The translations under genes and the position numbers were made by a program. The notes under the pieces are model-generated. The model saw only the letters and a list, made by a program, of their open reading frames with translations, was not told the origin of the DNA and ran no database searches. DNA of 60,455 nt, the filler included. It is 5 parts of 5 records of this genome, joined end to end, with 100 filler letters (N's around TTAATTAATTAA, not from the genome) between each part and the next. Parts side by side here need not be neighbours in the genome. Positions count along the whole stretch, not along the records: positions 16,993 to 31,286 come from DRR378314_1881; 4 more parts are not named here. The stretch is one strand, 5' to 3'. Below are positions 16,893 through 53,991 of the stretch, piece after piece; the stretch's first letter is position 1, and every line of letters starts with the position of its first letter.

Positions 16893-16992
16893 NNNNNNNN
16901 NNNNNNNNNNNNNNNNNNNNNNNNNNNNNNNNNNNNTTAATTAATTAANNNNNNNNNNNNNNNNNNNNNNNNNNNNNNNNNNNNNNNNNNNN
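16893..16992. other. Artificial contig linker (44N-TTAATTAATTAA-44N)
   Basis: Identical 100-bp spacer with stop codons in all six frames. Confidence 0.99.
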
Positions 16993-17142
16993 CGTCAATG
17001 GTCAAAAGTTTGCAACAGAACCCCACCCTGTCAGGAGGCCAGCCACCAAGTCATTGCGATGATCGTAGTGTTTTCCATGAAACACTGACTATCGTCTGCG
17101 AGATTACTGGTCAATCAAATGGTAGAAGGGGCTCGAGGCTGA

Positions 17143-17264
17143 CGGCCCATAGCGGTCACTCGGCATTATGCCGAAATGCTGCGGTTGCAGCCCGCTTTCC
17201 GGACATTCGCCGCTTTAGCAAAACCTCGAGCTAAACGAACTTATAGCAAACGGACGCAGTGACC
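17143..17264 (+). repeat. Dispersed intergenic repeat R1, copy A
   Basis: Boxes CGGCCC(+0), GCTGCGG(+35), CATTCGC(+61), GCAAAA(+75), CGAAC(+93), CGGAC(+108). Ends 8 bp from the vWA gene stop. Confidence 0.85.
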
Positions 17265-17272
17265 GAAAACGC

Positions 17273-19825
17273 TTACTTCACTTCGATCGTCTTCCGCGCA
17301 AGAACTGCCTGGTTCGAAAGGTCCAAAAAGCGTATCTCGTAGACACCCGGCTCTTGCGGGAGCGCCACGGAAATGGGTGGTTCACCGGTGATCTTCGTGG
17401 CCGAAATCCAGGTAAAGATCGCCTGATCACCGCGCGCGAGCGTTATTCTCTGATCCGCGCTATCGTTTTCGACGCTCCATCTAACTTCAATGGTCGAGCC
17501 AGGTGCTCCGGAATCAGGTGCGGAAATTTCCCCTCCGGTGTTCAGTTGCGCATCTGCCGCCAAAACTTCCACCGTCTGCCGTGCCAAGACCTTACTCCCC
17601 TCGCGGAGCAGATAGCGCACTTCGTATAGGCCCGTCTCGTCTGGTGCCGTCATGTCATGCTCTGAGTTGCCCCTCACCTGCGTGTAGACACCGAATTCGT
17701 CGTCCGGCGTCCCAAGCGGCACAAGGTTCACGTAGTCGCGGCTGTTGACCGTTCCCGTCCATGTCACGCGCAGTGTATCCCCGGCACGGACCTCAGCCGC
17801 CGCTGTGATCGTCACTTCAGGTTCGGTGACCTCGACGGGCACACTTGCGATTGTTTTCGCGCCTTCGCGCAGAATGTAGCGCACCTCGTATGTACCGGGT
17901 GCCGATGGTGCCTGCACATTCCCGCTCGCAGCGTTCCGAACCACAATATAGTTTCCGAATTCGCCCTCATCGGCCCCCATCGGTACGATGCCGACGTAAT
18001 CCTGATTGCTGACAGTTTTGGTCCAGGAGACTTCGAATTCGCTACCCGCGACGATCATGTCCGGAACGTTGAGCGTGACCTCAGGTTCGGTGATCTCTAT
18101 CATCGCGGTCGCCATTGTTTTGGCTCCTTCGCGGAGGATGTAGCGCAATTCGTAGAGGCCAGGATCGGCCTGCGCCGTCAGAGTTCCGGAAGTACCATCG
18201 TGCACAACTAGGTAGTTTCCGTACACGCCTTCATCGGAACCGGCAGGTACGATGGCGACATAGTCCTGCGTGTTGACCGTGCCCGTCCAGGTTACTTTGA
18301 ATTTCTCACCAGTCGAGACGGATTCCGGTCCGACGATGGTGATCTCCGGAGCCTCGACTTCGATCAGCTCGCTCGCCAGCGTCCGCGCGCCCTCGCGAAG
18401 AACGTATCGCACCTCGTACATGCCGGTCTCGGCAGGAGCCTTTAAAACTCCTTTGTTGGTGTCACGGACAACGATGTAGTTGCCGAACTCGCCCTCGGCG
18501 GCGCCCATCGGAACGATGTTGATGTAATCCTGCTGGCTGACAGCCGCCGACCACGCGACGTCGAATTTCGACCCCGTCAGCGTCGAACCCGGCACCTGCA
18601 GCGTCACTTGTGGGGATGTGACCTCGATCTGGCGAGTGGCGACAGTGCGCTTGTCGACGTTTAGGATATAGCGCACTTCGTAAAGACCCGGATCAGCCTG
18701 TGCGGTCAGAGCGAGTTCGGTATTTGTGCCGATCCTCTGATAGTTGCCGAAAGTGCCGGGGTCAGAGCCGGCGGGAACGATGGCGACATAGTCGGCCACA
18801 TTGATCGTTGGCATCCAGGAAACGCCAAACCTTGCCCCTGTTTCCACACTGTCGGGAGCGGTAAGGTCAACAGTCGCTTCGGCCACTTCAATGCTGTCCT
18901 GGCCCAGAACGTCTTTCGTCTGGTTGTGCAGGTAGCGCACTTCGTAGATGCCTTCGTCGCCGGGCGCCATCAGGGTAACCTCGGTGGCGTTGCCGATCCG
19001 TGCATAGATTCCAAAAACGTTGGCATCGGTGCCGACGGGTACGATGTTGATATAGTCGGCTTCGGCCACTGTTGGCGTCCAGGTAACGTCGATGTTTGAG
19101 CCGGCGATTGCGGTATCGGGCGCATCGACCGCGACCTGCGGCGCTTGAGATTCAGGCTCGGGTCCCGGTTCAGGCGCGACTTCGGGCTCGGCCAGAGCGA
19201 CGGCCGTACTTACCGCACTAAAGGCCGCACCCAATTCGGTGGCATTGGTGGCAGTGATGTACTGTCCGCCTGTGTTCTCGGCGATGCACGACAGCGAGCT
19301 TGCGTCCTCATCGCTTCCAAGACCGAAGCCGACCACATGCACGGTGAAGCCGACACCGCTTTGCTCAAGCTTTTTCGCCAGAGCACAGGGATCGCGATCA
19401 CAGCTTTCCAAACCATCCGAGATCAAAACGACCGTTGCCGGAGTGTCAGCATAGGACAGCGCGATGGCCGCCTGCTCGACGGCATCGGTGAGAGGCGTTT
19501 TGCCGGTTGGTTTCACGTCTTGGGTTCTTTCAAGGATCGTCTCACGTGATGCCTGGCCTGGTTCAACCAACACCTCGATATCTCCACAATCGCCACGGCG
19601 GCGGTGGCCGTAAGCCATCAAACCGACCTGCCGTTCATCCGCCCAATCGCCGAGGAGGCTACCCATCGCGGCGCGGGCAATTTCTACCTTCGCAACCCCT
19701 TCGATTTGGCCCCACATGGAATTCGACCCGTCAAAAACTACCATGACGTTTTCGTCTCCCCAGGCGGATGTACCCAGCGAAAGCGAGATGCAGGTCACGA
19801 TTTTACAAAGACAAAGGCGTCGCAC
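17273..19825 (-). CDS. Exported vWA-domain protein with six tandem 88-aa beta-rich repeats plus a divergent seventh
   Basis: GGAGG RBS before GTG at 19825; signal-peptide-like N-terminus; MIDAS DGSNS, GKTPL and LISDGLESC; repeats of pattern APD..G..F.V.W...DY..IVP.G...G.Y...G.YEVRY. Confidence 0.9.
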   Translation of the reverse strand: MRRLCLCKIVTCISLSLGTSAWGDENVMVVFDGSNSMWGQIEGVAKVEIARAAMGSLLGDWADERQVGLMAYGHRRRGDCGDIEVLVEPGQASRETILERTQDVKPTGKTPLTDAVEQAAIALSYADTPATVVLISDGLESCDRDPCALAKKLEQSGVGFTVHVVGFGLGSDEDASSLSCIAENTGGQYITATNATELGAAFSAVSTAVALAEPEVAPEPGPEPESQAPQVAVDAPDTAIAGSNIDVTWTPTVAEADYINIVPVGTDANVFGIYARIGNATEVTLMAPGDEGIYEVRYLHNQTKDVLGQDSIEVAEATVDLTAPDSVETGARFGVSWMPTINVADYVAIVPAGSDPGTFGNYQRIGTNTELALTAQADPGLYEVRYILNVDKRTVATRQIEVTSPQVTLQVPGSTLTGSKFDVAWSAAVSQQDYINIVPMGAAEGEFGNYIVVRDTNKGVLKAPAETGMYEVRYVLREGARTLASELIEVEAPEITIVGPESVSTGEKFKVTWTGTVNTQDYVAIVPAGSDEGVYGNYLVVHDGTSGTLTAQADPGLYELRYILREGAKTMATAMIEITEPEVTLNVPDMIVAGSEFEVSWTKTVSNQDYVGIVPMGADEGEFGNYIVVRNAASGNVQAPSAPGTYEVRYILREGAKTIASVPVEVTEPEVTITAAAEVRAGDTLRVTWTGTVNSRDYVNLVPLGTPDDEFGVYTQVRGNSEHDMTAPDETGLYEVRYLLREGSKVLARQTVEVLAADAQLNTGGEISAPDSGAPGSTIEVRWSVENDSADQRITLARGDQAIFTWISATKITGEPPISVALPQEPGVYEIRFLDLSNQAVLARKTIEVK

Positions 19826-19926
19826 GGTTGGCCTCCAATACTCAAAATACAATGATCTCTGAGACTATGCACCGTCTCGCAGTTTTCGCCAATGGTTCCT
19901 GCAAGTGAACGCCACGCTCGATTTTC

Positions 19927-20059
19927 CGGCCCAGAGCTGCCGCGCACCACCGGTCTCCGCCGCTGCGTTGCCGCTCGTGAGTCCGGACATGCGCTGCGCC
20001 TGCTAAATCGGGCGGCTTTCGAATTCACACTGAGCGGGACAAAGTTCGCTTTCGCTGCG
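19927..20059 (+). repeat. Dispersed intergenic repeat R1, copy B
   Basis: CGGCCC(+0), GCTGCGT(+35), CATGCGC(+61), GCTAAATC(+75), CGAAT(+93), CGGGAC(+108), then TTCGCTGCG. Confidence 0.85.
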
Positions 20060-20422
20060 GGGCTTATGGGCTGGTCAAAGACGTTTTGCAACTAATGGAA
20101 TTAGTGGAGTTACATGGGTGTGGGCCAGCCCTGACCCGTGTGCAGATGCCTGAACATCCGCAAATCCACACGAACAAAACCTAGTTGGAATTTGATCATC
20201 CATTGGCTGGCCGACTGCGGCAGGCAGATGCTGTGGTCCAGTTCTCGAAAACTCCCACCACGATACGATTTGGTGCCCCCGCTTATGGCACAGATACCGA
20301 ATCTGTTCTTGCCGAGCTCGGTGTAAAAAAGTGAACTCGCGCCAACGCAATTCAGTGAGAGCATCGTAACATGCTGAATAAAAACACTTGTTAAGGAGAG
20401 TGAAAAAGGGTTGTAATGTTGC

Positions 20423-20440
20423 CTACCTATCGATAGGTAG
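20423..20440. promoter_or_regulatory. Perfect 18-bp palindrome CTACCTATCGATAGGTAG, probable TetR operator
   Basis: Exact inverted repeat 36 bp upstream of the GST start codon. The downstream gene cluster encodes a TetR regulator. Confidence 0.75.
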
Positions 20441-20476
20441 TTGACAAGAAACGCAAACCCCTACGGAGGTACTCAG

Positions 20477-21097
20477 ATGAAGATTTATGATGTCGAAGGG
20501 TTCCCGAACCCTGCCCGTATCCGCATCGCACTGGCTGAAAAAGGCGCGTCAGACAAGGTTGAATTCATCCCTGTGGATGTGATGGGTGGCGAACACCGCA
20601 CGCCCGAATTCAAAGCCAAGAACCCCGATGCTGCGGTGCCTTGTCTGGAACTGGAAGATGGTTCGCATATCGCTCAGTGCAACGCGATTACTGAATATAT
20701 TGACGCAGCCTTCGATGGCCCATCATTGACCGGCGTGACTGCGCAAGAGCGTGCCCGCATCTCGATGATGAACCTGCGCGTGGAAAACGGTCTGTTGAAT
20801 GCGGTAGGCGCCTACTTCCACCACGCTACACCTGGGCTGGGCCCCGACCTTGAAACTTATCAATGCGCCGAATGGGGCAATAAGCAGAAAGAGGTCGCCG
20901 GAAACACAATGGCCTATCTGGACTCGGTTCTCGCCGAAAATGAATACTTGGCCGGAGACACATTCTCGGTAGCTGATATCACCGCCTTTGCAGGATTGGC
21001 GTTCGCCGATTTTGCCAAAGTTGAAATTCCTGAAACCCTGACCAACCTTCAGGCGTGGCGTGCTAAGATGGCGGCCCGTCCATCTATCGCCGCCTAA
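20477..21097 (+). CDS. Glutathione S-transferase (GTT2-like)
   Basis: GGAGG RBS and ATG at 20477; FPNPARIRIALAEKG, KNPDAAVPCLELEDG, YLAGDTFSVADIT. Confidence 0.92.
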   Translation: MKIYDVEGFPNPARIRIALAEKGASDKVEFIPVDVMGGEHRTPEFKAKNPDAAVPCLELEDGSHIAQCNAITEYIDAAFDGPSLTGVTAQERARISMMNLRVENGLLNAVGAYFHHATPGLGPDLETYQCAEWGNKQKEVAGNTMAYLDSVLAENEYLAGDTFSVADITAFAGLAFADFAKVEIPETLTNLQAWRAKMAARPSIAA

Positions 21098-21133
21098 GCG
21101 AGAACTGCCATTCAAGTCGAAAGGACCTCTCCC

Positions 21134-21802
21134 ATGGAGCTCAACTCGGACTTCTCTTCCCGTGTCGTTGTTCACTCTGACCAGCTTGAGTGGCAGGCCT
21201 CGCCCATCAAGGGCGTGGACCGGCGCATGCTGGACCGAATTGGTGGCGAAGTCGCCCGCGCCACCACCATTGTGCGCTATGCACCGGGCAGCAAGTTTTC
21301 GGCCCACACCCATACAGGCGGTGAAGAGTTCATCGTGCTTGATGGAGTGTTTCAGGATGAGCATGGCAATTTTCCCGAAGGCACCTATGTGCGCAATCCT
21401 CCGACAACCGAGCATACGCCCAGTTCAGAACCAGGCTGCACGATCTTCGTCAAACTCTGGCAGTTCGACATGGATGACCGCAATCAGTTCCGCAAAACCA
21501 TGGCCGACGAACTGGCCGCACCCGTGAACGGGATTGCCACTGCGACCCTGCACAAGGATGACCGCGAGGTTGTCACTTACAGCCATGTTGATGCAGGCAC
21601 CGAGGTTACCTCGGATGCGCCAGGTGGTATCGAACTGTTGATGATTGGCGGATCGCTGACCTCAGGTGACGACGTTCTGAAAAAGAACGACTGGTTGCGC
21701 CTGCCCGAAGGTGAAGCGCTGTCTGCAGTTGCGGGTCCGGACGGGGCGAAGGTCTGGATGAAAACCGGCCACCTGCCTTTTGCACAACCACCGGCGGTGT
21801 GA
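21134..21802 (+). CDS. ChrR-like double cupin protein
   Basis: [61 protein letters not shown]. Confidence 0.9.
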
Positions 21803-21805
21803 TTC

Positions 21806-22489
21806 ATGAATTCTGACAAACCTCTGGCGATTGTCGCCGGTGCGGGGGCTGGCCTTGGCCAGTCACTTCTTGCGCGGTTTCAGGCGGGTGGCATGACTGC
21901 CATTGGTCTGGGGCGGACGCAGCCGCAGGAAACGATCGCGCCGTTTCATCAGGTCGATCTGTCCGATCCGAGTGCGGTTGCGCCAGTGATTTCCGAAATG
22001 ATCGCTGCGCAAGGACCACCGAAGATCGTGGTGCACAATACAGCTGAGCTGGTGATCGCACCTTTCCCCGAAACCACATTGGAGGACTACCAGAGAACGT
22101 GGACGTCGATGGTGCAGTCTCTGGTCGTGCTGGGGCAATGTGTTCTGCAACCGATGGTGCGCGGCGGTGGTGGCGCGCTGATCGTTTCCGGGGCCACAGC
22201 GTCGCTGCGCGGCGGCCCACGGTTTTCCGCTTTTGCGTCGGCCAAGTTCGCCTTGCGCGGGCTGACACAGTCGCTGGCACGTGAATATCAACCGGCTGGT
22301 GTACATGTCTCGCACGTCGTTCTGGACGGGATCATCGATACTCCCCGCTCGCGGGATTTGCACTCGCTGGATCCGTCGAAAATGATGAAACCGGACGAGA
22401 TTTCCGAGACCTACTGGCAGCTGGCTCATCAACCGCAATCCACCTGGACCCATGAGCTGGACCTGCGCCCGGCATCTGAGGGGTTCTGA
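21806..22489 (+). CDS. Short-chain dehydrogenase/reductase with F in place of the catalytic Y (FASAK)
   Basis: GAGAGLG Rossmann motif; SGATASLRG..FSAFASAKFALRGL; GVHVSHVVLDGII; WTHELDLRP. Confidence 0.9.
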   Translation: MNSDKPLAIVAGAGAGLGQSLLARFQAGGMTAIGLGRTQPQETIAPFHQVDLSDPSAVAPVISEMIAAQGPPKIVVHNTAELVIAPFPETTLEDYQRTWTSMVQSLVVLGQCVLQPMVRGGGGALIVSGATASLRGGPRFSAFASAKFALRGLTQSLAREYQPAGVHVSHVVLDGIIDTPRSRDLHSLDPSKMMKPDEISETYWQLAHQPQSTWTHELDLRPASEGF

Positions 22490-22492
22490 TCG

Positions 22493-23554
22493 ATGCAGAC
22501 GCAAACTGTGATCATTGGCGCAGGCCTTTCTGGCCTCTGCCTTGCGCGACAGCTACAGGCACAAAACCATGACTACCTGCTGATCGAAGCGCGGGGTCGT
22601 CCGGGCGGACGTATCCTGACGGAAAGGCTGGAGGGTGGGTATTTCGACATGGGTCCGGCCTGGTTCTGGCCCGGACAACCGCGCATTGCAGCGTTGATAA
22701 AACGGCTCGGACTGGAGTGGTTCGAGCAATATTCAACAGGCGCGCTCAGCTTTGAAAACGAGATCGGCCAGGTCGAGCGCGATCGCGGGTTTGCCTCGAT
22801 GCAAGGATCTTATCGCTTGAAAGGTGGTCTGGGCGCCCTCACTGATGCGCTTGCCGCTGAGATACCACCGAAGCGGCTCATCTTATCCGCGCCTATCGTC
22901 GGGTTAGAGAAGTCTGCGTCTGGGATCACCGCGACCGCTCAAACTGGGCAGGTCATCCATGCTCAGGAAGTCGTACTGGCCCTCCCTCCTCGCGTGGCGA
23001 GCAAGATCGCGTTCTCACCTGCTTTACCAGATGAAGCTTTATCGGCGATGACTGGGATCGCAACATGGATGGCCGGACAGGCCAAAGCAATCGCTGTCTA
23101 TGATACCCCTTTCTGGCGCACGGCCGGGTTGTCCGGTGACGCGATGAGCCGCAGGGGGCCGATGGTGGAAATACACGACGCATGCCCTGCCGAGGGCGGA
23201 CCTTACGCGTTGTTTGGCTTTATCGGCTTGCCCCCCCGCGCCCGCAGCAATGAAGAACGGCTGCGGCAGGCGCTTAAAGAGCAACTGGCCCGGCTGTTTG
23301 GCGCTGAAGCTGCGGAGCCAAAGACACTCTTGGTCAAAGATTGGGCCTTCGATCTGTTCACCTCTATCGAAGCGGATCAACAGCCGTTATACGCTCATCC
23401 GCAATACGGGCTGCCCCATGCGATGACCCGCCTGTGGGATGGCCGACTGATCTTTGGCGGGACCGAGGTTGCGCCACAGTTCGGGGGTTATATCGAAGGC
23501 GCTCTGGAGGCTGCGGACAACGCGCTGGCCCTGGTCATGACGGAAAAGGTTTGA
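22493..23554 (+). CDS. Flavin monoamine oxidase family protein
   Basis: IIGAGLSGL, EARGRPGGRI, DMGPAWFWP, C-terminal GTE..GGYIEGALEA. Confidence 0.9.
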   Translation: MQTQTVIIGAGLSGLCLARQLQAQNHDYLLIEARGRPGGRILTERLEGGYFDMGPAWFWPGQPRIAALIKRLGLEWFEQYSTGALSFENEIGQVERDRGFASMQGSYRLKGGLGALTDALAAEIPPKRLILSAPIVGLEKSASGITATAQTGQVIHAQEVVLALPPRVASKIAFSPALPDEALSAMTGIATWMAGQAKAIAVYDTPFWRTAGLSGDAMSRRGPMVEIHDACPAEGGPYALFGFIGLPPRARSNEERLRQALKEQLARLFGAEAAEPKTLLVKDWAFDLFTSIEADQQPLYAHPQYGLPHAMTRLWDGRLIFGGTEVAPQFGGYIEGALEAADNALALVMTEKV

Positions 23555-23560
23555 GCACGT

Positions 23561-24124
23561 ATGACGAGTGATACCAAGACTGCCCTTCTGGATGTTGCTG
23601 AACACGCCGCACGGGCGCGCGGATTTGACGGGTTCAGCTATGCCGATCTGGCCGAGGCAGTGGGTATTCGCAAGGCGTCGATCCATTACCATTTCCCGAC
23701 CAAAGCGGCGCTGTCGGCGGCACTCATGGATCGGTATCATGAGACCTTGAAGGCAGAATGCAACCGCATCCGGGTAGAACTCAAAACCGGGGCCGAGCAA
23801 TTGCTGGCCCTGATCGACCTCTATCGGGATGCACTCAACGACGGGAAAACCCTGTGCCTCTGCGTGTCGCTCATCAGCAGTCGTGAAAGCCTGTCGGATG
23901 ACGTGATCCAAAAGATCCGGAAATTCCGCGCCATGATGGTTGCCCAAATCGAAGAGATCCTGAAGCTTGGCCAAGAGGACAAGTCAATCACCGGTATTAC
24001 CTATCCGATATCGGAGTCCCGCGCGATACTGGCTCTACTAGAAGGCGCGCATCTGACCGCACGTGCGGAAGAGAATGTGAATACCTTCGATGAGGCTTTG
24101 GGCGTTTTAAAGTCCCGCTGTTGA
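23561..24124 (+). CDS. TetR/AcrR-family regulator (NemR-like)
   Basis: HTH GFDGFSYADLAEAVGIRKASIHYHFPTK; C-terminal domain with LCLC and LLEGA. Confidence 0.92.
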   Translation: MTSDTKTALLDVAEHAARARGFDGFSYADLAEAVGIRKASIHYHFPTKAALSAALMDRYHETLKAECNRIRVELKTGAEQLLALIDLYRDALNDGKTLCLCVSLISSRESLSDDVIQKIRKFRAMMVAQIEEILKLGQEDKSITGITYPISESRAILALLEGAHLTARAEENVNTFDEALGVLKSRC

Positions 24125-24187
24125 CCTGCGCCCCGACACATCAGATCGTTGCCGCAAGCAATTCATTTGATATTCGGAGCTTCCCTT

Positions 24188-25045
24188 ATGCCCAAAGTCA
24201 TTCTGATCACCGGCACGTCAACCGGCCTTGGTGTTCAAATCGCCGTACAAGCGGCCCAAGCGGGCCACACTGTCTATGCTACCATGCGAAACCTCGCCAA
24301 ACGCGGCATCTTGGATGCGGCCGCCTCTGACGCTGGTGTCAATTTCAACGTGCTTGATCTGGACGTGCAGGACAGCGCCAGCGTAAACGCCGCAGTCGAC
24401 CAGATCATCGCGAACGAGGGCCGGATCGATACGCTGATCAACAATGCGGGTGCAGGATTTGTCCGCACAACCGAACAAGCCAGCGAAGAAGACGTCGCCT
24501 GGGTCATGGATGTGAATTTCATGGGTGTCGTGCGCTGCACAAAAGCGGTGATGCCACACATGCGCGCAGCGCGCTCGGGCCACGTCATCACAATCTCATC
24601 CGTAGGCGGCCTTGTGGGTCAGCCGTTCAACGAGATCTACTGCGCCGCAAAGTTCGCCGTTGAAGGATACACTGAGGCTCTGGCCAGCTATGTCACACCC
24701 AATTTCGGCATCCATTTCTCGACAGTTGAACCGGGCGGCATTCAATCCGAATTTGCCGCCAGTGTGTTGAAACATGTCGAGGCCACGGGCGGGATGCTTG
24801 AGGATGAGTATCTGCCCATTCTCCAGAAGTACATCGGCGGCGCGCAGGCGCGAATGGATGGCAGCGATATCTATCAAACCTCGGAACAAGTGGCATCAGT
24901 TGTCATGGGCGTGGTTGACGCCTCGGACCCGCCGATCCGCATTCGCACTTCAAACTGGGGTGAGGCGTTTACACGCCTGAAAACCGAAGCCGACCCGGAC
25001 GGCAAAAAGCAACAGGCAGCCGTGATTGAGCAGTTCTTAAGCTGA
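24188..25045 (+). CDS. Classical SDR oxidoreductase
   Basis: TGTSTGLG, LINNAG, SSVGG and YCAAK catalytic motif. Confidence 0.92.
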   Translation: MPKVILITGTSTGLGVQIAVQAAQAGHTVYATMRNLAKRGILDAAASDAGVNFNVLDLDVQDSASVNAAVDQIIANEGRIDTLINNAGAGFVRTTEQASEEDVAWVMDVNFMGVVRCTKAVMPHMRAARSGHVITISSVGGLVGQPFNEIYCAAKFAVEGYTEALASYVTPNFGIHFSTVEPGGIQSEFAASVLKHVEATGGMLEDEYLPILQKYIGGAQARMDGSDIYQTSEQVASVVMGVVDASDPPIRIRTSNWGEAFTRLKTEADPDGKKQQAAVIEQFLS

Positions 25046-25054
25046 GAGCCTATT

Positions 25055-25320
25055 CATGTGATGTTGCTCGGAATGTGGCAGCCTTGCTTCGGTCGCCGCA
25101 GGTTTCCATGTTGCACTATGCGCTCGCCATTTCGCATGCAGCCGGCAACCTCGAAAAAGCAAATAAAGAAGCCGCCAAAATGCAAAAGTACTTCCCAAAG
25201 TTCATGACAGAACGGTCGGCAATAAATGCAGCGTTGCGTGTCTCGCGCGACGTCGACGTGAAATTTGCGCGAATCTGGCGGCTCTATCTTTCCAGAAAAT
25301 ACAGGCAACTTCTGGGTGGC
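25055..25320 (+). pseudogene. Possible remnant of a TPR-containing protein C-terminus
   Basis: ALLRSPQVSMLHYALAISHAAGNLEKANKEAAKMQKYFPKF resembles a terminal TPR plus capping helix. No convincing start or RBS; the ORF runs into repeat R1-C. Confidence 0.3.
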
Positions 25321-25333
25321 GATCGAATGCTCA

Positions 25334-25459
25334 CGGCCCTAACCGGACACTCGACGCCGATCACTTTTGCTGCGGCGCGGCCTGTCGAACCTGCCATTCG
25401 CTGCACCCGCAAAATCATGGGCTAGTCGAACGCGCATTCTGGCGTACGGTGCAGACGTT
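25334..25459 (+). repeat. Dispersed intergenic repeat R1, copy C
   Basis: CGGCCC(+0), GCTGCGG(+35), CATTCGC(+61), GCAAAATC(+75), CGAAC(+93), CGTAC(+109). Ends ~13 bp from the cyclase stop. Confidence 0.85.
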
Positions 25460-25472
25460 ATGAACCACTGTG

Positions 25473-26900
25473 TTATTCGCACAAATCGGCAACAATGGCC
25501 TTTAATCGACGCATGTTCTCGTCGCTTATGCGAGCCGGATCCACGGTAAGGGAATAGCCCTCATCTTCCACGTGAATGATGCGACTGTCGCGCGCCTCGC
25601 CGTCGTAGATTTTGGTTGCCGCATAAGTGCGGACGGGATTTTGAAATCCCTTCACCGGAATTGGCTCTCGCTCCTCAGCCGGCAGCCAGTCTTTTACCAA
25701 AGAATAGGTTTCGGCAGCGAGCAGGATACCTCCAGGATCACACTCTGTCTCAAGTCTTGCGGCAAGATTCACTTCGCGCCCAATTGCGGTGTAGTCCATC
25801 CGGTCTTCGGAGCCGAAGTTTCCAATTGTGCAGTAGCCCGTGTTGATGCCTATGCGGGCGTGAAATGGTCGATCGATCAATCCTTGGCGTTGCCAACCTG
25901 TTTGCAAATCGTTCAGGCTGCGTTGCATGTCTATTGCCATTCGCACACAGGCGGCTGCATCTTCCTTTGCCCCGAGGCTTTCGGGTTCACCAAAGTACAG
26001 CATCATTGCATCACCAATGAATTTGTCGAAGTATGCGCCGTGCTGCAGGGCGATCTTGGACATTTCTGTTAGATACTCATTCAGCAAAGAGGTCAGTTCC
26101 TCAGCCTCGAGTTGATCTGTTATTTCGGAAAAATCGACGATGTCGGAGAAGAAAATCGTAAGCTTCCGGCGTCGGCTTTCGATCGCCGCTTGTTGGTTGC
26201 CAGCAATGATTGATCCGTAAAGCTGGGGTGGCATGTACTTGGCAAGCTGTTTTGATACGTTTGCTAAGGTCTCATTCGCTTCACGCATTTGGTTCAACAA
26301 ATGCAAATTATCCAGCGCGATGTTCGCTTGTGACGCAAACGTCTTGAGAATATCGAACTGTTCTCTTTTTAGCTTACCGATCGAATGCCTCAACACGGCG
26401 AGAGCTCCGACGGTCTGTCCTCCTTGTGAAATCGGCACCATGGTGACCGCACGAAATCCAGAGGCAAGGAAGTTCCCAGCCCCTATTCGAAACTGATCTT
26501 GCGCAGCGGCGACGTCCGGTAAATCAATCGTATTGCCATTCAAAATGACGTGGCCGTGAATTGTCTCGGGATGAAGCGGAGCCGGAAATCGCCGCCGCCA
26601 AGCTTCAACGCCCGCTGGTTCTGGACCAGAAATTGCTCCCAAAATCAGCTTATCATCCTCCCGAAGCCCAATACTGACTGTCGACTTTGGAAACAACGCC
26701 TGGCCCGCTTCAACGATTGAGTTAAAAACAGGTTGAGGATCCTTAATCGAGCTGTTGACTACTTCTAGGATTTTGGCGGTCACCGCTTGCCGGTCCAGTG
26801 CTTCTCGCAACTGGATTTCCAAGACCTCCAAGTTCTTAGCCCCCCTTTGGGTCGGATCATGCACGAGGTCTGGTTGCGATGTGCCCCGACCCTTTGACAT
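25473..26900 (-). CDS. GAF-domain class III adenylate cyclase
   Basis: AGGAGG RBS; GAF domain ending FASQANIALDN; cyclase motifs FSDIVDFS, DKFIGDAMM, RIGINTG, GNFGSEDRMDYTAIGREVNLAARLE (Lys/Asp ATP-specificity residues). Confidence 0.93.
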   Translation of the reverse strand: MSKGRGTSQPDLVHDPTQRGAKNLEVLEIQLREALDRQAVTAKILEVVNSSIKDPQPVFNSIVEAGQALFPKSTVSIGLREDDKLILGAISGPEPAGVEAWRRRFPAPLHPETIHGHVILNGNTIDLPDVAAAQDQFRIGAGNFLASGFRAVTMVPISQGGQTVGALAVLRHSIGKLKREQFDILKTFASQANIALDNLHLLNQMREANETLANVSKQLAKYMPPQLYGSIIAGNQQAAIESRRRKLTIFFSDIVDFSEITDQLEAEELTSLLNEYLTEMSKIALQHGAYFDKFIGDAMMLYFGEPESLGAKEDAAACVRMAIDMQRSLNDLQTGWQRQGLIDRPFHARIGINTGYCTIGNFGSEDRMDYTAIGREVNLAARLETECDPGGILLAAETYSLVKDWLPAEEREPIPVKGFQNPVRTYAATKIYDGEARDSRIIHVEDEGYSLTVDPARISDENMRRLKAIVADLCE

Positions 26901-26923
26901 CTCAAACCTCCTTTTATTAGTGA

Positions 26924-27220
26924 TTAGCCTTCGACTAAGTCGTAGTGCTTGATGGACCGAGACTCGACGAGTTCTGATTCTGCTGGATCGATATGCGGAC
27001 TGTGGTAGTCTTCACCCACAAACGCCTTAAGCGCTTCCAGGCTTTCCCACACCATGACAAAACTGAACTCTCGTGGTGCCTCCTCTCTGGGAGCTCCCGG
27101 AAGAACGCGCACGATCCCTGGAGTGCTATTCATTAAGGGGATCGCGGTATCGTGGAAGAAGCGGCCGAACTCCTCTTCTTTTCCTGGTCGCGTTGTAACT
27201 TAAAAAATACGCATGATCAT
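26924..27220 (-). pseudogene. Antibiotic-biosynthesis-monooxygenase (ABM)-like small protein with in-frame TAA at codon 7
   Basis: AGGAGG RBS, then ATG ATC ATG CGT ATT TTT TAA GTT. The paralog at 29428-29721 has CAA at this codon. The remainder is intact and ~70% identical by eye. Confidence 0.8.
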
Positions 27221-27650
27221 ACAACCGTCCTCCTAAAAAGCGCGGTTTTTGAATGTATGAGTGCCTCACAAAATCCAGATTAACATACTTGATGCGGAGT
27301 GTCAGATTTGGGCTCAGAGCGCCGTTTCGCTGCCGGTGACACGAACTATGGCTGCTGAACTGCGAATGGCTGCGTATCGAACCAAACGGCGTAGAATCAA
27401 GAGTATGGCCCTGGTGGCGAACGCCCGCTCCAGTGAGGTCTGAAGGTCGACGCATTCTGCGATGGCATTCGACGGACCCGAGCCTATGGCGGACCTTTTA
27501 TCCCTTACGACCACCGACAATAGATATGGTTGGAAGCGCTCGTTCATTGCACCAATCATTCCAGCGTGCCATCTGTTGGTGCCGCGACGATTTCGGATGG
27601 TCTCTGCCTACGGTCTGTCGCTTCATAGTTTTGCAAGTGCAGGAGTGATC

Positions 27651-28106
27651 ATGACGTTTTATGACCGCAAAGACGCCGCCGCCGTCTTTATCCTGCGCCT
27701 AGGGCTCGTGTGGTTCATGTTTCTCTGGGCCGTCCACAAGATCATTACGCCCAAGCAATATCAAAACTTGGCCAAGAATATCGACGGGATCGAGATGTCC
27801 TTTGCCCAGATATACGCCGTGGGAGGCGTTCAAATTGCACTTTGTGTGCTGGCAGCTCTGGGCGTTTTTCGCGTTTTCAGCTATGGTGGTCTTGCGGCGA
27901 TGCATTTCTTTACCATCACCCGACAATGGGAGCGATACCTAGATCCCTTTGCTCTGAACGACCGCGGCTTTCCAATCAACCGAAACCCAGTGATCGCTCT
28001 TGCGGCGATGGCCGCGTTCGTCGCGCTTCTGCTCCTGATTCACCGCGATCACTTCAGCATCGGAGGCTGGCTGCGGCGCCACGCAGGCGCCCGTTGGTGG
28101 TATTAG
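27651..28106 (+). CDS. DoxX-like integral membrane protein
   Basis: AGGAG RBS and ATG at 27651; LRLGLVWFMFLWAVHKI first helix; four hydrophobic segments. Confidence 0.7.
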   Translation: MTFYDRKDAAAVFILRLGLVWFMFLWAVHKIITPKQYQNLAKNIDGIEMSFAQIYAVGGVQIALCVLAALGVFRVFSYGGLAAMHFFTITRQWERYLDPFALNDRGFPINRNPVIALAAMAAFVALLLLIHRDHFSIGGWLRRHAGARWWY

Positions 28107-28332
28107 GATCTGACTTCTAGAAAAGGTAACCGCCCCATAAAACCATCCATTTGGCGAGATTGAGGGCGTGCCGAGATCGGCTTTGTCCGCCACCTTTGAG
28201 TTCGAGTGCGAACACTTGCTGCGGCCAGCACGAGCGACCGGTCCGGTCGCCAAGTGGCGGCGCTGAAATTCTTGCATCTGCGACGAATTTCCTGCCGCGA
28301 GCGCACGCAGCGAGAATTCAATACTTTTGCTG

Positions 28333-28418
28333 TGGGCTCGGAGCTGACCTCGGTGCCGTCGCAGCAAAGCCCCCTGCCCCGCTAATCACTGAGACGTGGT
28401 CGGCCCTAACCAGACGTT
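28333..28418 (+). repeat. Intergenic direct repeat R2, copy 1
   Basis: TCGGTGCCGTCGCAGCAAAGCCCCCTGCCCCG core, 2 mismatches to copy 2; ends in a CGGCCC box. Confidence 0.88.
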
Positions 28419-28615
28419 GACCCACCTTCGACCATCCTATTTCATCGCGCAGGTCACAGCTTGATCGATATCAATATGATCACGCTGTCACTCGTTTTTA
28501 GTTGGAAGAACGTGCTCCCTGAAATTTGCTGCGGACAGATTTTTTCGAGACCGTAAAGACCCAAACCAGCGGGATCGCCGAGTCCGGGTCAAGTGCCGAC
28601 CGATCACTTGTTTGT

Positions 28616-29422
28616 CTATTCCGGCTTGCAGGCGGTCATGATGTAGGCAGTCGTCGGGAAGACCGCCTTGCCCGAAGGCGTGGCGTATTTCGAAAGTTTC
28701 ACATCGGATTCGATCAGAACTTCTGCGATTTTTTCTTCACTGAGATGTATATCAAACAGCGGCAGCCAACCCCGTAGTTCGACTTCAACCATGGTCCGGG
28801 TGCTGGGAAAGGTTGCCTGCTCGCTTTTTGTTTCAAAGGCAATGTCATCGAAGCCCGCTTGCGACAAGATGTTCGCTACCTCGTTGGGGTCGCCCAAACT
28901 GAATGGCAGCCTCACAGAATTTGCGGCCTCTGGCGATACATGCTCTTCCAACACAGCAACGATGTCACGATATGCAGGGTTCTGGTCGATAGTGTGCCAG
29001 ATCGCCACCCCCAGCCTGCCGCCCGGTTTGGTCACCCGGTACATTTCGCGTGTCGCTTTCCGCAGTTCCTGAAAAAACATCATTCCAAACTGCGAGATCA
29101 CGCTATCAAACGAACCATCTGCGAGGGGCAGCTCTTCGGCACTGCCCAGAATCCACTCGATATTGGGTTCAACTTCTCTTGCCGCTGCAATCATGCCGGG
29201 TGCAGGATCAAGTCCGACTACGCGACCAGTATGTCCAGAACACTCGTATGCTGCTCGCGTCAACACGCCTGTACCACACGCAACATCCAAAACGAGCGCA
29301 CCTTTGCGTATTCTTGCGCCGCCAGTCAAATGGTCGCACCACGGTGCAAATAGCGCTGGCACAAACAGAGCTTCGTATCCACGACCCGCTTGGAGTTCTT
29401 CTTGTGTTACTTCGGCGGCCAT
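28616..29422 (-). CDS. Class I SAM-dependent methyltransferase (UbiE-like)
   Basis: VLDVACGTG, VVGLDP, AEELPLADGSFDSVISQFGMMFF, RVTKPGGRL. Confidence 0.93.
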   Translation of the reverse strand: MAAEVTQEELQAGRGYEALFVPALFAPWCDHLTGGARIRKGALVLDVACGTGVLTRAAYECSGHTGRVVGLDPAPGMIAAAREVEPNIEWILGSAEELPLADGSFDSVISQFGMMFFQELRKATREMYRVTKPGGRLGVAIWHTIDQNPAYRDIVAVLEEHVSPEAANSVRLPFSLGDPNEVANILSQAGFDDIAFETKSEQATFPSTRTMVEVELRGWLPLFDIHLSEEKIAEVLIESDVKLSKYATPSGKAVFPTTAYIMTACKPE

Positions 29423-29427
29423 TTGCG

Positions 29428-29721
29428 CTACTCCACAAATTCGTAGTGTTTGATTGATCTGGATTCGACCAATTCGGCTTCTGAAGGATCCACATGCGGC
29501 GATTGGTAATCATCGCCTACAAACGCCTTGAGAGAAGCGAGATCTTTCCAGATCATCACGAAACTGAATTCTCTTGGACTGTCAGCCCACGCTGCGCCCG
29601 GAAGGACCTGCACGATCCCTTCGGTTCCCCGCATCAATGGTATGGCCGTGTTGTGGAAGAAGTCACCGAACTCCTCCTCTTTGCCTTCTTTCGCTGTGAC
29701 TTGAAATATCCGCATGATCAT
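29428..29721 (-). CDS. ABM-like (dimeric alpha-beta barrel) small protein, intact paralog
   Basis: GGAGG RBS; MIMRIFQV..GKEEEF..IPLM..G..EFSFVMIWKDLASLKAFVG..IKHYE. Confidence 0.8.
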   Translation of the reverse strand: MIMRIFQVTAKEGKEEEFGDFFHNTAIPLMRGTEGIVQVLPGAAWADSPREFSFVMIWKDLASLKAFVGDDYQSPHVDPSEAELVESRSIKHYEFVE

Positions 29722-29882
29722 AAAAGCCCCTCCGATTGGTAGGGTTGCTGCCTGCATGATGACCTCAAAAATACCTCATATCACATCGCGGGCCCAATGT
29801 CGCTTTGCTCAAAGGGTGGGAAGACGCGACCGCTAGGCGCATGGAAAGCTGACGTTGGTGAATTTTGCGGCATCCGACATAT

Positions 29883-29970
29883 TGAGCTCGAAACCGACTT
29901 CGGTGCCGTTGCAGCAAAGCCTCCTGCCCCGATAGTAGCTGATCACGCGGATCGGCCCGCTCCGGACCTT
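29883..29970 (+). repeat. Intergenic direct repeat R2, copy 2 (overlaps the start of R1-D)
   Basis: TCGGTGCCGTTGCAGCAAAGCCTCCTGCCCCG core. Confidence 0.88.
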
Positions 29971-30084
29971 CATCGAATTCGGCCACGCCGCGGCGCAGCT
30001 CACCAAACCTGTCATTCGCCGCGAGTGCAAACTCTGGACCCTAGCGAACTCACAGTTTGCGGGACGTTTCCGACTTTCGCTGCG
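29953..30084 (+). repeat. Dispersed intergenic repeat R1, copy D
   Basis: CGGCCC(+0), GCCGCGG(+34), CATTCGC(+60), GCAAACTC(+74), CGAAC(+92), CGGGAC(+107), then TTCGCTGCG. Confidence 0.85.
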
Positions 30085-30214
30085 TCTGCGCCAAAGGCCG
30101 CATCGCAGATAGACGCTGAAGTGCAGCGCACCTGCCGGATAACTCGGTTGGTTTCTGTGTAAGTCCGTCCGGCCATTCCCTTCGCCCACAAGACGCTCAA
30201 AGTGCGCAAAACTT

Positions 30215-31105
30215 CTAGTCAGCGGTATCGCGCAGATAAGCGATTAGCCCAATCCGCTCCTCCCTCGTCATTTCCGGCACGCGAAGCATCTCGGTCCCTG
30301 GCACAACACCGGTCGGATCATTCAGGAACGCATTGAGGGCTTCCACATCCCAAACGCCCTCCAATGCGGCCATGGCGGTGGAATAGGCATAGTCATCCCT
30401 AGCCGGACGCGTCGCGCCAAAAACCCCAACCAAACTCGGACCAACATGCGGACCTGTCGCGGGTTTGCCTTCCTCTGTCTCGTGACATGTATTGCATCCA
30501 TGCAGTACCCGTTGTCCCGCTTCGACACTGGCATTTTCAAGTTCATCGAGCGTAATTGGCTCAGGCAAATTGGGGGCCGCGCCGTTTTTGCGTAGAAATT
30601 CAACCATTTCCTGGTTGCCGGACATAGCGGCAGCATGAACGGCCGGACGCCCCTTACTGTTGCGGAAATTCACATCCGCTCCATACGCAAGCAAGAGCTT
30701 CGCAGCTTCGAAGGCCGCTCGGGCGGCCGCTTCATGTATCGGCGATTGATCGAAATCACCTGCCTTCAAGTCTGGGTTAGCACCATTTTCAAGCAAAAGC
30801 TCAACAATGACAGCGTTGTTGGCACGCGCTGCCGCGTGAATTGGGCTACCGAAAGTGAAGCTGATATTGGGGTTCGCACCATGATCCAGCAGTAACTCGA
30901 CCACCTTCGGATGTCCGCGTTGTGCGGCAAAGAATAATGGGCGATTGAGAGTGTCGGGCCCATCTATGCCAGCTTCAAGTACATCCATCACCACTGCAAT
31001 ATTACCGTCAGTGGCGGCATCGACCAACTCCGGGTTCGCTTGAGCAGAAGGGCCGATAGCAAACAGCCCAAGAAAACATCCCGCAAAGGTCACGTTCTTG
31101 AACAT
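30215..31105 (-). CDS. Exported ankyrin-repeat / class I cytochrome c fusion protein
   Basis: Signal peptide ending AQA; ankyrin repeats (PLFFAAQRGH..VVELLLDHGANPN, PIHAAA..LLLENGANPD and others); CNTCH heme motif, GPSLVGV, YAYSTAM, VPGTEM. Confidence 0.9.
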   Translation of the reverse strand: MFKNVTFAGCFLGLFAIGPSAQANPELVDAATDGNIAVVMDVLEAGIDGPDTLNRPLFFAAQRGHPKVVELLLDHGANPNISFTFGSPIHAAARANNAVIVELLLENGANPDLKAGDFDQSPIHEAAARAAFEAAKLLLAYGADVNFRNSKGRPAVHAAAMSGNQEMVEFLRKNGAAPNLPEPITLDELENASVEAGQRVLHGCNTCHETEEGKPATGPHVGPSLVGVFGATRPARDDYAYSTAMAALEGVWDVEALNAFLNDPTGVVPGTEMLRVPEMTREERIGLIAYLRDTAD

Positions 31106-31286
31106 TGATTTTTTCCTTGCAGCGATGCCCAACGGCCTACTCTGAAAGGGCTGATCTGGAGATTCGTTCAGCCGCTTGCAGCTGTGAACACACCCTTGAT
31201 CCTAGTCGATAAGCCGCCGTTCGTCAAAAAGTACGCGTCGTACAGGAAGGGCTCGATGCTTACTTCGGAGCAGACGCAGCATCGGG

Positions 31287-31386
31287 NNNNNNNNNNNNNN
31301 NNNNNNNNNNNNNNNNNNNNNNNNNNNNNNTTAATTAATTAANNNNNNNNNNNNNNNNNNNNNNNNNNNNNNNNNNNNNNNNNNNN
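31287..31386. other. Artificial contig linker
   Basis: 44N-TTAATTAATTAA-44N. Confidence 0.99.
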
Positions 31387-44356: not shown

Positions 44357-44456
44357 NNNNNNNNNNNNNNNNNNNNNNNNNNNNNNNNNNNNNNNNNNNN
44401 TTAATTAATTAANNNNNNNNNNNNNNNNNNNNNNNNNNNNNNNNNNNNNNNNNNNN
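44357..44456. other. Artificial contig linker
   Basis: 44N-TTAATTAATTAA-44N. Confidence 0.99.
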
Positions 44457-53891: not shown

Positions 53892-53991
53892 NNNNNNNNN
53901 NNNNNNNNNNNNNNNNNNNNNNNNNNNNNNNNNNNTTAATTAATTAANNNNNNNNNNNNNNNNNNNNNNNNNNNNNNNNNNNNNNNNNNNN
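53892..53991. other. Artificial contig linker
   Basis: 44N-TTAATTAATTAA-44N. Confidence 0.99.

Follow-up and report, generated by a model that had tools for sequence, protein, structure and literature searches.

What kind of element is a repeat of about 125 nucleotides that recurs four times, always in the same direction, between otherwise unrelated genes? This question was raised by positions 17143 to 30084 of a 60,455-nucleotide stretch of DNA (hereinafter, the window refers to this whole stretch), in which four copies of the repeat, R1, were predicted from the sequence. We consider it likely that recombination takes place at R1 in a so far undescribed cassette system of the Roseobacter group (Rhodobacterales), which is an analogue of the integron and not one of its members. 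The original prediction, that R1 is a protein-recognised site marking an integron-like array of cassettes without attC sites, was supported by the array structure, by linkage to a recombinase gene, and by the exchange of genes at a hexamer within R1.

The hexamer CGGCCC starts at 17143, 19927, 25334, and 29953 (copies A to D), in all cases on the plus strand, and a script-based check recovered the six predicted boxes at their offsets: CGGCCC at 0, GCYGCG at 35 (34 in copy D), CATKCGC at 61 (60 in D), GCWAA at 75 (74 in D), CGAAY at 93 (92 in D), and a CGGAC-like box at 108-109. The CATKCGC box lies inside CCKGHCATKCGCYGC, which starts at 56 (55 in D). A single 1-nt deletion in copy D was the sole indel among the four copies. 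Pairwise identity was 52-60%, with 43 of 126 aligned columns invariant. The central-box pattern, allowing up to two mismatches, matched just these four sites of the window and had no match in 100 dinucleotide-preserving shuffles. An nhmmer profile of the four copies recovered its own sites at E 4e-31 to 3e-29, followed by a next match at E 0.08, and no fifth full-length copy was found in the window with it.

Copy A (17143..17265, with the hexamer at 17143-17148) matched a covariance model of the family at 17142-17262 (77.8 bits). Copy B (19927..20084; model 19926-20051, 69.2 bits) is located between the start of a von Willebrand factor type A (vWA) gene and a module beginning with a glutathione S-transferase (GST) gene. 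Copy C (25334..25476; model 25333-25459, 71.3 bits; nhmmer 25328-25476) lies between a short-chain dehydrogenase/reductase (SDR) gene on the plus strand and a convergent GAF-cyclase gene on the minus strand, and copy D was found at 29953..30105 (model 29952-30076, 71.1 bits; nhmmer 29951-30105). The distances to gene ends were also reproduced: the vWA stop lies 8 nt past A, the cyclase stop (25473) 13 nt past C, and the stop of an ankyrin-cytochrome gene (30215) about 130 nt past D, with the vWA gene bracketed by A and B. The predicted length of about 125 nt was too short for the wider family, in which conservation starts abruptly at CGGCCC and extends for about 150 nt; overall, R1 has a length of roughly 125-155 nt.

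The exact central-box pattern was run over a species-representative genome collection, in which loci were defined as 8-kb blocks of contigs, and was found in 100 stretches. Among the 80 titles listed, nearly all belonged to the Roseobacter group, including Ruegeria, Leisingera, Shimia, Sulfitobacter, Roseovarius, and Yoonia; outside it, these titles contained single matches in Maritalea and Parvularcula. An apparent closeness of matches to contig ends was dropped, since the loci were merely blocks of contigs. For order-wide scans, a sequence-only covariance model was applied to 151 sampled Rhodobacterales genomes, with 22 candidates scored per genome. R1 was present in 94 of the 151 genomes (E up to 1e-6), and at least 32, 33, 7, 14, and 16 copies were counted with the model in five genomes. 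Copies were located on chromosomes and on conjugative plasmids. This occurrence across the Rhodobacterales agreed with the earlier view that R1 is not a decaying duplication.

Among 140 non-redundant copies, the hexamer was exact in 108 and had one mismatch in 20. Across genera, the boxes held their offsets and the sequence between them varied freely, which points to selection on the site. This conservation bears on a first alternative, in which R1 copies are inactive, passive scars, remnants of the attachment sites of islands that were once integrated, and any recombinase beside them is coincidental or serves the resolution of plasmid multimers. The low mutual identity of the window copies would suit such scars, as would the many R1 copies that consist of left or right halves only, but the signs of selection on the boxes speak against them.

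Of the neighbouring copies up to 5 kb apart, 40 of 41 pairs had the same orientation; for distances up to 10 kb the figure was 49 of 51, and for those up to 20 kb it was 56 of 59. Clustering and co-orientation, for which a test had been suggested, are features of the family. One Litoreibacter contig carried 12 R1 copies in 16 kb. On a 3.9-Mb chromosome, one cluster was all minus and another all plus, and R1 orientation is therefore local and does not follow the replichore. In Leisingera, a ~34-kb island began at one copy, where a GC content of 0.65 gave way to one of about 0.50, and ended at another copy. This island was bounded by a 477-nt direct repeat ending at the hexamer (L112 7470-7946 and L114 1771-2247; G005:C9). 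The 477-nt repeat itself contained, before the hexamer, an apparent degenerate R1 right half with its tail, which suggests nested older sites.

The orientation of neighbouring genes was assessed for the 140 copies by using homology-supported genes within 400 nt, most copies being without a supported neighbour. Of 33 supported upstream neighbours, 27 were on the strand of R1, whereas 27 of 37 supported downstream neighbours were on the other strand; R1 thus usually faces two gene 3' ends. The cargo between copies reached 6.6 kb and could include several genes on both strands. No tRNA gene adjoined the arrays in 14 regions, the sole tRNA-Ser gene being about 9 kb from the nearest copy, and a tRNA-anchored island was rejected on these grounds. 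A displaced target-gene end was not supported either, no open reading frame (ORF) extending into R1.

A search for breakpoints of gene gain and loss within the element had been suggested as a test, and gene blocks were indeed exchanged between strains and between replicons exactly at the first six bases of R1. Window positions 17143-29892 corresponded to G001:C20:13234-25983 in genome G001 with 98.2-99.5% identity, which began exactly at the hexamer of copy A, the left flank being different in G001:C20. The 150 nt to the left of copy A (16993..17142, plus strand) were 100% identical to G001:C7:230910-231059, where they precede CGGCCC and a different R1, and the identity ended after CGGCCC. The same left flank was accordingly found with two different R1 bodies, and the same R1 body with two different left flanks. 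The hexamer is all that they have in common, and its length would not suffice for homologous recombination or an assembly mis-join.

A second case was provided by Phaeobacter inhibens P92, in which two cassettes occurred in permuted order on plasmids pP92_b (L120, NZ_CP010612.1) and pP92_a (L121, NZ_CP010611.1), the latter being conjugative. The first cassette (R1, phosphoesterase, ABC transporter genes, and LysR) extended over L120 4239-10887 and L121 5778-12425 (99.3% identity), and the second (R1, hydrolase, and recombinase gene) over L120 10880-12662 and L121 4001-5783 (99.5%). The aligned pieces overlapped by 6-8 nt. The six junctions combined four left flanks with four R1 bodies, and every join was at CGGCCC. 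By comparison of the two plasmids, the permutation fits the excision of a circle via the outer sites and its re-entry via the inner site. Two further strains had plasmids equal in size to these, on which the recombinase gene was located at identical coordinates. The recency of the P92 event implied by this identity, and the difference between the window and G001 within almost identical DNA, both argue against inactive scars.

Two further observations were made on these plasmids. A lone TniQ-family gene (L120 2674-4233) is separated by 5 nt from the R1 copy that opens the pP92_b array, the gene being upstream, and lies inside the strain-variable region, which begins before the TniQ gene. In pP92_a, the R1 closing the permuted block (L121 12420-14293) was apparently split by an IS3-family transposase gene, with the hexamer and an R1-like left part on one side and the right half (14204-14293) on the other.

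Other loci showed the same asymmetry. The two ends of the Leisingera island, as well as L011 and L073, had only the upstream side in common, up to the hexamer, and L073 and L077 only R1 and the downstream side. No pair among the fetched loci shared the upstream side together with R1 alone. Near-identical copies at other places had only positions 0 to +120 in common (36 pairs after removal of twice-fetched DNA, all but L073/L077), and copies within one genome could be 94-97% alike with unrelated flanks. Exchange would take place at or within the hexamer, which probably represents the strand-exchange region, and the R1 body would consequently move together with the cargo that lies 3' of it. Half copies and the divergence past +120 had suggested a crossover at GGAC|AAGC or at the CATTCGC...GCAAAAT centre, but the junctions indicate the 5' hexamer instead; there may still be a second exchange point. 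In contigs from public reads (four runs), five joints with sides of 20-29 nt were not taken as excision: three of them joined two R1 copies and were artefacts of the repeat, and the other two, located within the vWA gene, had no explanation.

To find genes linked to R1, 1606 ORFs from 114 R1-bearing loci were clustered. With the LysR, ABC, and SDR families set aside, whose enrichment near copies was put down to large family size and not to linkage, a small PF00589 protein was singled out in 13 of the 114 loci. A co-oriented R1 started 15-18 nt past the ORF of this tyrosine recombinase in 11 of these 13 loci, and the gap from stop codon to hexamer was 22-23 nt in all 14 loci with an intact gene end. 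Linkage to a recombinase had been among the tests suggested. Three of the 14 were on named plasmids, namely the megaplasmid of Ruegeria sp. TM1040 and two P. inhibens plasmids, and more recombinase-R1 adjacencies were found in the order-wide scans. As stated in the original prediction for recombinases in general, no member of this R1-linked family was detected in the window (tblastn, E up to 1).

The recombinase consists of 210 amino acids and was 74-97% identical across genera. It matched PF00589 at E 1.1e-13, with the Pfam catalytic domain at residues 45-195, and the catalytic residues R61, H158-x-x-R161, H184, and Y193 were conserved. Only about 28 disordered residues precede the catalytic domain, and the N-terminal DNA-binding domain of Xer proteins is missing. 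In profile searches against the Protein Data Bank (PDB), XerA, XerD, and XerH were the closest proteins (2.3e-12 to 4e-8, XerA having the lowest value), and IntI4 was at 0.008; phmmer of the recombinase against PDB gave no match. The predicted structure (predicted local distance difference test score of 88) showed template modelling scores of 0.64-0.71, normalised to the query, to XerA, Cre, and XerH. No NCBIfam model reached its cut-off, integrase_gron scoring 20.4 bits against a cut-off of 265. With these residues and these nearest relatives, the protein is a plausible candidate for the enzyme acting on R1, and catalysis at R1 would be its role.

The recombinase family comprised 743 clusters at E up to 1e-30, carrying generic names only. 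On plasmids of Rhodobacterales, 27 records were found at 80% identity or higher, and distant relatives were common on plasmids across a wide range of genera, with 252 of the 324 plasmid records at less than 60% identity. The gene was present in 69 of the 151 sampled Rhodobacterales genomes (E up to 1e-40); by cross-tabulation by hand, both R1 and the recombinase were found in 58 genomes, R1 only in 36, the recombinase only in 11, and neither in 46. Genome G001 contained an intact copy beside R1, a second copy with 67% identity, and fragments. The gene is part of the arrays: it points the same way as the sites, converges with most of the cargo, and is present several times in a genome. Returning to the passive-scar alternative, the frequency of distant relatives on plasmids and the location of a recombinase beside its site, which is also the layout of a resolution system, are in its favour; a resolution site, however, would be expected as a single copy per replicon and not at 30 or more copies per genome as for R1. 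Taken together with the fixed boxes and the recent exchanges, we regard this explanation as quite improbable.

The recombinase also has a widespread second subfamily, with an identity of about 67% and a length of about 206-210 amino acids (G001:C7:106165-106782, G004:C2:1801823-1802440, and many other genomes). No R1 match was found beside it in the two genomes looked at, and it may use a different site.

Upstream of the recombinase gene, a leader of about 145 nt was conserved (consensus from 13 loci). Pieces of the leader without the gene preceded some R1 copies, including copy D. In the window, the 5' part of the leader was found at 29870..29952 (plus strand), directly upstream of copy D, by comparison with the consensus of the 13 recombinase loci. 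At 28320..28436 (plus strand), a second leader-like element, which is also repeated in G001, leads into CGGCCC and some 35 nt of R1. The weak match at 28400-28436 (covariance model positions 2-38, E 0.5) may, tentatively, be a truncated fifth copy. From the alignments, the R1 tail was also read as resembling the start of the leader, as for the 3' tail of copy B and the leader-like tail of copy D. As a separate observation, a repeat of about 65-80 nt corresponding to the 5' part of the leader without the gene occurred in the window at 28320-28399 and 29870-29952 and in G001 at C7:90068, 116706, and 188856, usually just upstream of CGGCCC. This repeat may be a remnant of recombinase gene deletion. 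In L051, cargo is followed by the leader 5' part and R1, and the whole recombinase gene occupies that place in L062; R1, cargo, and leader start were common to these two loci at 93%.

These leader remnants lend some weight to another explanation, namely that R1 is a miniature, non-autonomous derivative of a leader-recombinase-R1 element that spreads by itself between genes, the genes flanked by copies being ordinary residents and not cassettes. Recombinase-deleted derivatives such as L051 relative to L062, the leader pieces ahead of copy D and of the weak copy at 28400, the position of copies between gene 3' ends, and the near-identical copies of one genome in unrelated flanks would all be accounted for. 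Against this, target-site duplications, terminal inverted repeats, and a fold were not found: flank matches of 80 copies were the same as those of shuffled partners, and the R1 ends carried no inverted repeats. Co-orientation in 40 of 41 neighbouring pairs would be unexpected under free insertion. Moreover, genes travel with the copies, as seen in the permuted P92 cassettes, the low-GC Leisingera island, and a window cassette that was not found in G001. A self-spreading miniature element is therefore, in our assessment, an unlikely explanation, and R1 as a cassette recombination site remains preferred.

The possibility of a structured element, raised together with that of a protein-recognised site, was not supported. 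No Rfam family matched at gathering thresholds anywhere in the window; when E values up to 5 were allowed, three matches were obtained on the R1-bearing contig, none of them at an R1 copy, and the suggested search thus yielded no known family for R1. RNAalifold on 97 copies returned two invariant pairs with -0.91 kcal/mol and no covariation. The mean pair probability was 0.22 or lower on both strands, and in 14 combinations of copy and strand the folding energy was indistinguishable from that of shuffles (z -1.70 to +1.09). In six-frame translations of the copies, every frame was stopped in at least one copy, and no common peptide was found. The palindrome of repetitive extragenic palindromic (REP) elements and bacterial interspersed mosaic elements (BIMEs) was not present in R1, a RAYT gene not having been searched for. 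The nulls for fold, Rfam, reading frame, and duplication indicate that R1 is neither a structured RNA nor an attC hairpin, and that it does not belong to the REP elements or the classical miniature inverted-repeat transposable elements (MITEs), in line with the earlier statement that the sites are not attC-like. An interpretation of R1 as a small RNA or 3'-untranslated-region element, as a classical attC array or cluster of attC sites lacking integrons (CALIN), or as a REP-type element could draw on its position just past stop codons, its length similar to attC or the Vibrio cholerae repeat, and the co-oriented arrays. Set against the two unsupported pairs, the unremarkable folding energies, the Rfam nulls, and the much closer relationship of the recombinase to XerA than to IntI4, it is highly improbable.

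Comparison with known systems placed R1 between several of them. The attC site folds as an imperfect hairpin (R''-L''/L'-R') of which the structure, not the sequence, is conserved; IntI is a tyrosine recombinase with an IntI-specific extra segment, and an integron carries attI and a Pc promoter beside a divergently transcribed intI. R1 resembles this system in its co-oriented arrays of unrelated gene modules with one recombination site each, in exchange at one edge of a site that stays with the cargo, usually at a cargo gene 3' end, in the tyrosine recombinase, and in sites that can be alike within a genome despite unrelated cargo. In contrast, R1 has sequence boxes at fixed offsets instead of a hairpin or dyad symmetry, its cassettes are often multi-gene, and the linked enzyme is an Xer-like catalytic domain of 210 amino acids with IntI4 as a far weaker match, encoded within the arrays in co-orientation with the sites and several times per genome. 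A counterpart of attI or Pc was not identified, no search aimed at one having been made. Integron cassette arrays and CALINs are treated in PMC4889954 and PMC9668308, the features compared here being general background.

The enzyme was closest to XerA, XerD, and XerH both by sequence and by fold. In Xer/dif systems, the core consists of two inverted recombinase-binding arms around a centre of 6-8 bp; cer and psi have accessory sequences, the single recombinases XerS, XerH, and XerA have their site beside the gene, and pdif modules are also known. Recombinase-linked R1 copies show dif-like 8-bp inverted arms around 6 nt, which may represent such a core: the arms GGGCCGYC-N6-GRCGGCCC (7/8 or better) were detected in just 11 of 114 copies and at 0 of 114 decoy positions. 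The putative accessory region, which extends for about 120 bp from the R1 exchange point in one direction, recalls cer and psi, and site-bounded gene modules move between plasmids in both systems. R1 differs from Xer/dif in that a genome can have tens of copies, arranged as direct arrays and mostly lacking a second arm, in that its recombinase lacks the Xer N-terminal domain, and in that R1 is not at the replication terminus. The Acinetobacter pdif modules are named in PMC9771954.

Tn4430 encodes TnpI and carries a 116-bp internal resolution site, and ResD/rfsF and Rsd/crs are similar modules. They share with R1 a small tyrosine recombinase and an adjacent site of more than 100 bp composed of a core and motifs at fixed spacing; theirs, however, is a single site resolving one replicon or transposon, whereas R1 is multi-copy and bounds exchangeable cargo. 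By analogy with cer, psi, and the Tn4430 site, the R1 boxes may be accessory binding sites. R1 is similar to MITEs and REP/BIME elements in being short, multi-copy, intergenic, and often between convergent genes, with recombinase-less derivatives of a longer element, but it differs from them in the absence of inverted ends, hairpins, and target duplications and in the strict orientation of its arrays.

In the mechanism that we propose, a cassette would begin with the near-invariant hexamer CGGCCC, followed by a body of about 120 bp with fixed boxes that probably bind the recombinase or accessory proteins, often by a short tail like the start of the recombinase leader, and then by the cargo, which may be one gene or several kb, usually with a gene 3' end toward the site. 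Two direct sites would recombine to release a circle, which could re-enter at any site, and serial insertion into existing sites would build arrays of one orientation in genomic islands and on plasmids. The likely enzyme is the 210-amino-acid, catalytic-domain-only, Xer-like tyrosine recombinase, the gene of which would itself behave as a cassette, always ending 22-23 nt before a hexamer.

Several results weigh against this interpretation. The link between enzyme and site is drawn from adjacency and co-occurrence; 36 of the 94 R1-positive genomes were without the recombinase and 11 recombinase-positive genomes without R1 at the thresholds used, these being mostly drafts with 22 candidates scored each. 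Two-armed copies were mostly beside the recombinase gene and the other left flanks looked random, so that, with a second arm in 11 of 114 copies only, two-partner binding at most junctions is not accounted for. Not every boundary coincided with the hexamer: the right end of the block shared by the window and G001 lies 63 nt upstream of copy D, within the leader-like element (identity ends at 29889), and the variable region of P. inhibens starts 1.7 kb before the first R1 and ends 192 nt past a hexamer. The cassettes, with lengths to 6.6 kb and genes on both strands, are unlike typical integron cassettes. The six-gene module between copies B and C was found at about 94% identity in a mollusc-metagenome contig with other flanks, which lack R1. 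Finally, the four window copies, which are 40-48% different from each other, may be inactive relics.

The composition of the window is as follows. Four linkers (N44-TTAATTAATTAA-N44, six-frame stop spacers) were located at 16893-16992, 31287-31386, 44357-44456, and 53892-53991, and the window is thus a pseudomolecule of five contigs, the adjacency of which is without meaning. Their GC contents were, in order, 0.565, 0.558, 0.579, 0.622, and 0.59. All four R1 copies are on contig 2 (16993-31286), which is preceded by the first linker (16893..16992), ends at the second (31287-31386), and is bacterial in gene content according to Pfam. In our interpretation, the four copies are recombinase-less, mutually divergent members of one array in a Ruegeria-like bacterium, and contig 2 would be part of an R1 cassette island of this bacterium inside a mixed pseudomolecule.

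The cargo between A and B encodes 859 amino acids with a vWA domain (17273..19852, minus strand; Pfam VWA_2 2.1e-10, VWA 7.2e-09). Between B and C, six genes on the plus strand (20441..25045) encode a GST, a ChrR-type cupin, an SDR, an amine oxidase, a TetR protein, and a further SDR by Pfam. This module was about 70% identical on plasmids of Rhodobacteraceae, Marinobacter, and Shewanella, and its recurrence there and in the metagenome contig with different flanks indicates that it is itself a travelling operon. The cargo between C and D (25473..29757, overall on the minus strand) contains genes assigned by Pfam to a GAF-adenylate/guanylate cyclase (25473-26900), a methyltransferase (28616-29422), and an ABM monooxygenase-like protein (29428-29757), all on the minus strand, and an unassigned ORF on the plus strand (27462-28106). 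Copy D is followed by an ankyrin-repeat/cytochrome c protein gene (30215..31132, minus strand; Pfam). This last cassette was not found in G001, where the only matches were to repeated elements (query 7-176 of 1397) and none fell in the remaining, gene-bearing part of the query.

On contig 3, an intron-free ORF at 31387-34556 (minus strand) matched Pfam Nckap1 (E 5.6e-184), the family of the eukaryotic Nck-associated protein 1. The contig end, which opens with a C-rich run, truncates this ORF. This ORF indicates that the record mixes eukaryotic and bacterial contigs.

No description of an R1 element or system was found in the full-text literature within reach, supplements and subscription journals lying outside it, nor in the available parts of two Roseobacter papers (PMC4809877, PMC5730936). 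Few marine heterotrophs are as abundant or as well studied as the roseobacters, whose plasmids and genomic islands show high plasticity. In a broader view, towards which we lean slightly, R1 would represent a second, integron-independent platform for gene capture, with double-stranded sites of about 150 bp, a six-base exchange point, a box-bearing accessory arm, and a minimal, cassette-borne Xer-like recombinase, in which multi-gene circles move between chromosome and plasmid and build variable islands in this clade, which is ecologically dominant in the sea. If this is true, the integron would have a natural counterpart in which the site is double-stranded and defined by its sequence and the recombinase is reduced to a minimum. 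The system is directly testable in the cultured and genetically tractable Phaeobacter inhibens and Ruegeria sp. TM1040. The small size of the 210-amino-acid enzyme could make it attractive as a tool for recombination, and the hexamer with its boxes would serve as a new marker delimiting mobile gene blocks in marine metagenomes. For the roseobacters themselves, R1, carried by about 60% of the sampled genomes, would offer a concrete mechanism for their genomic plasticity.

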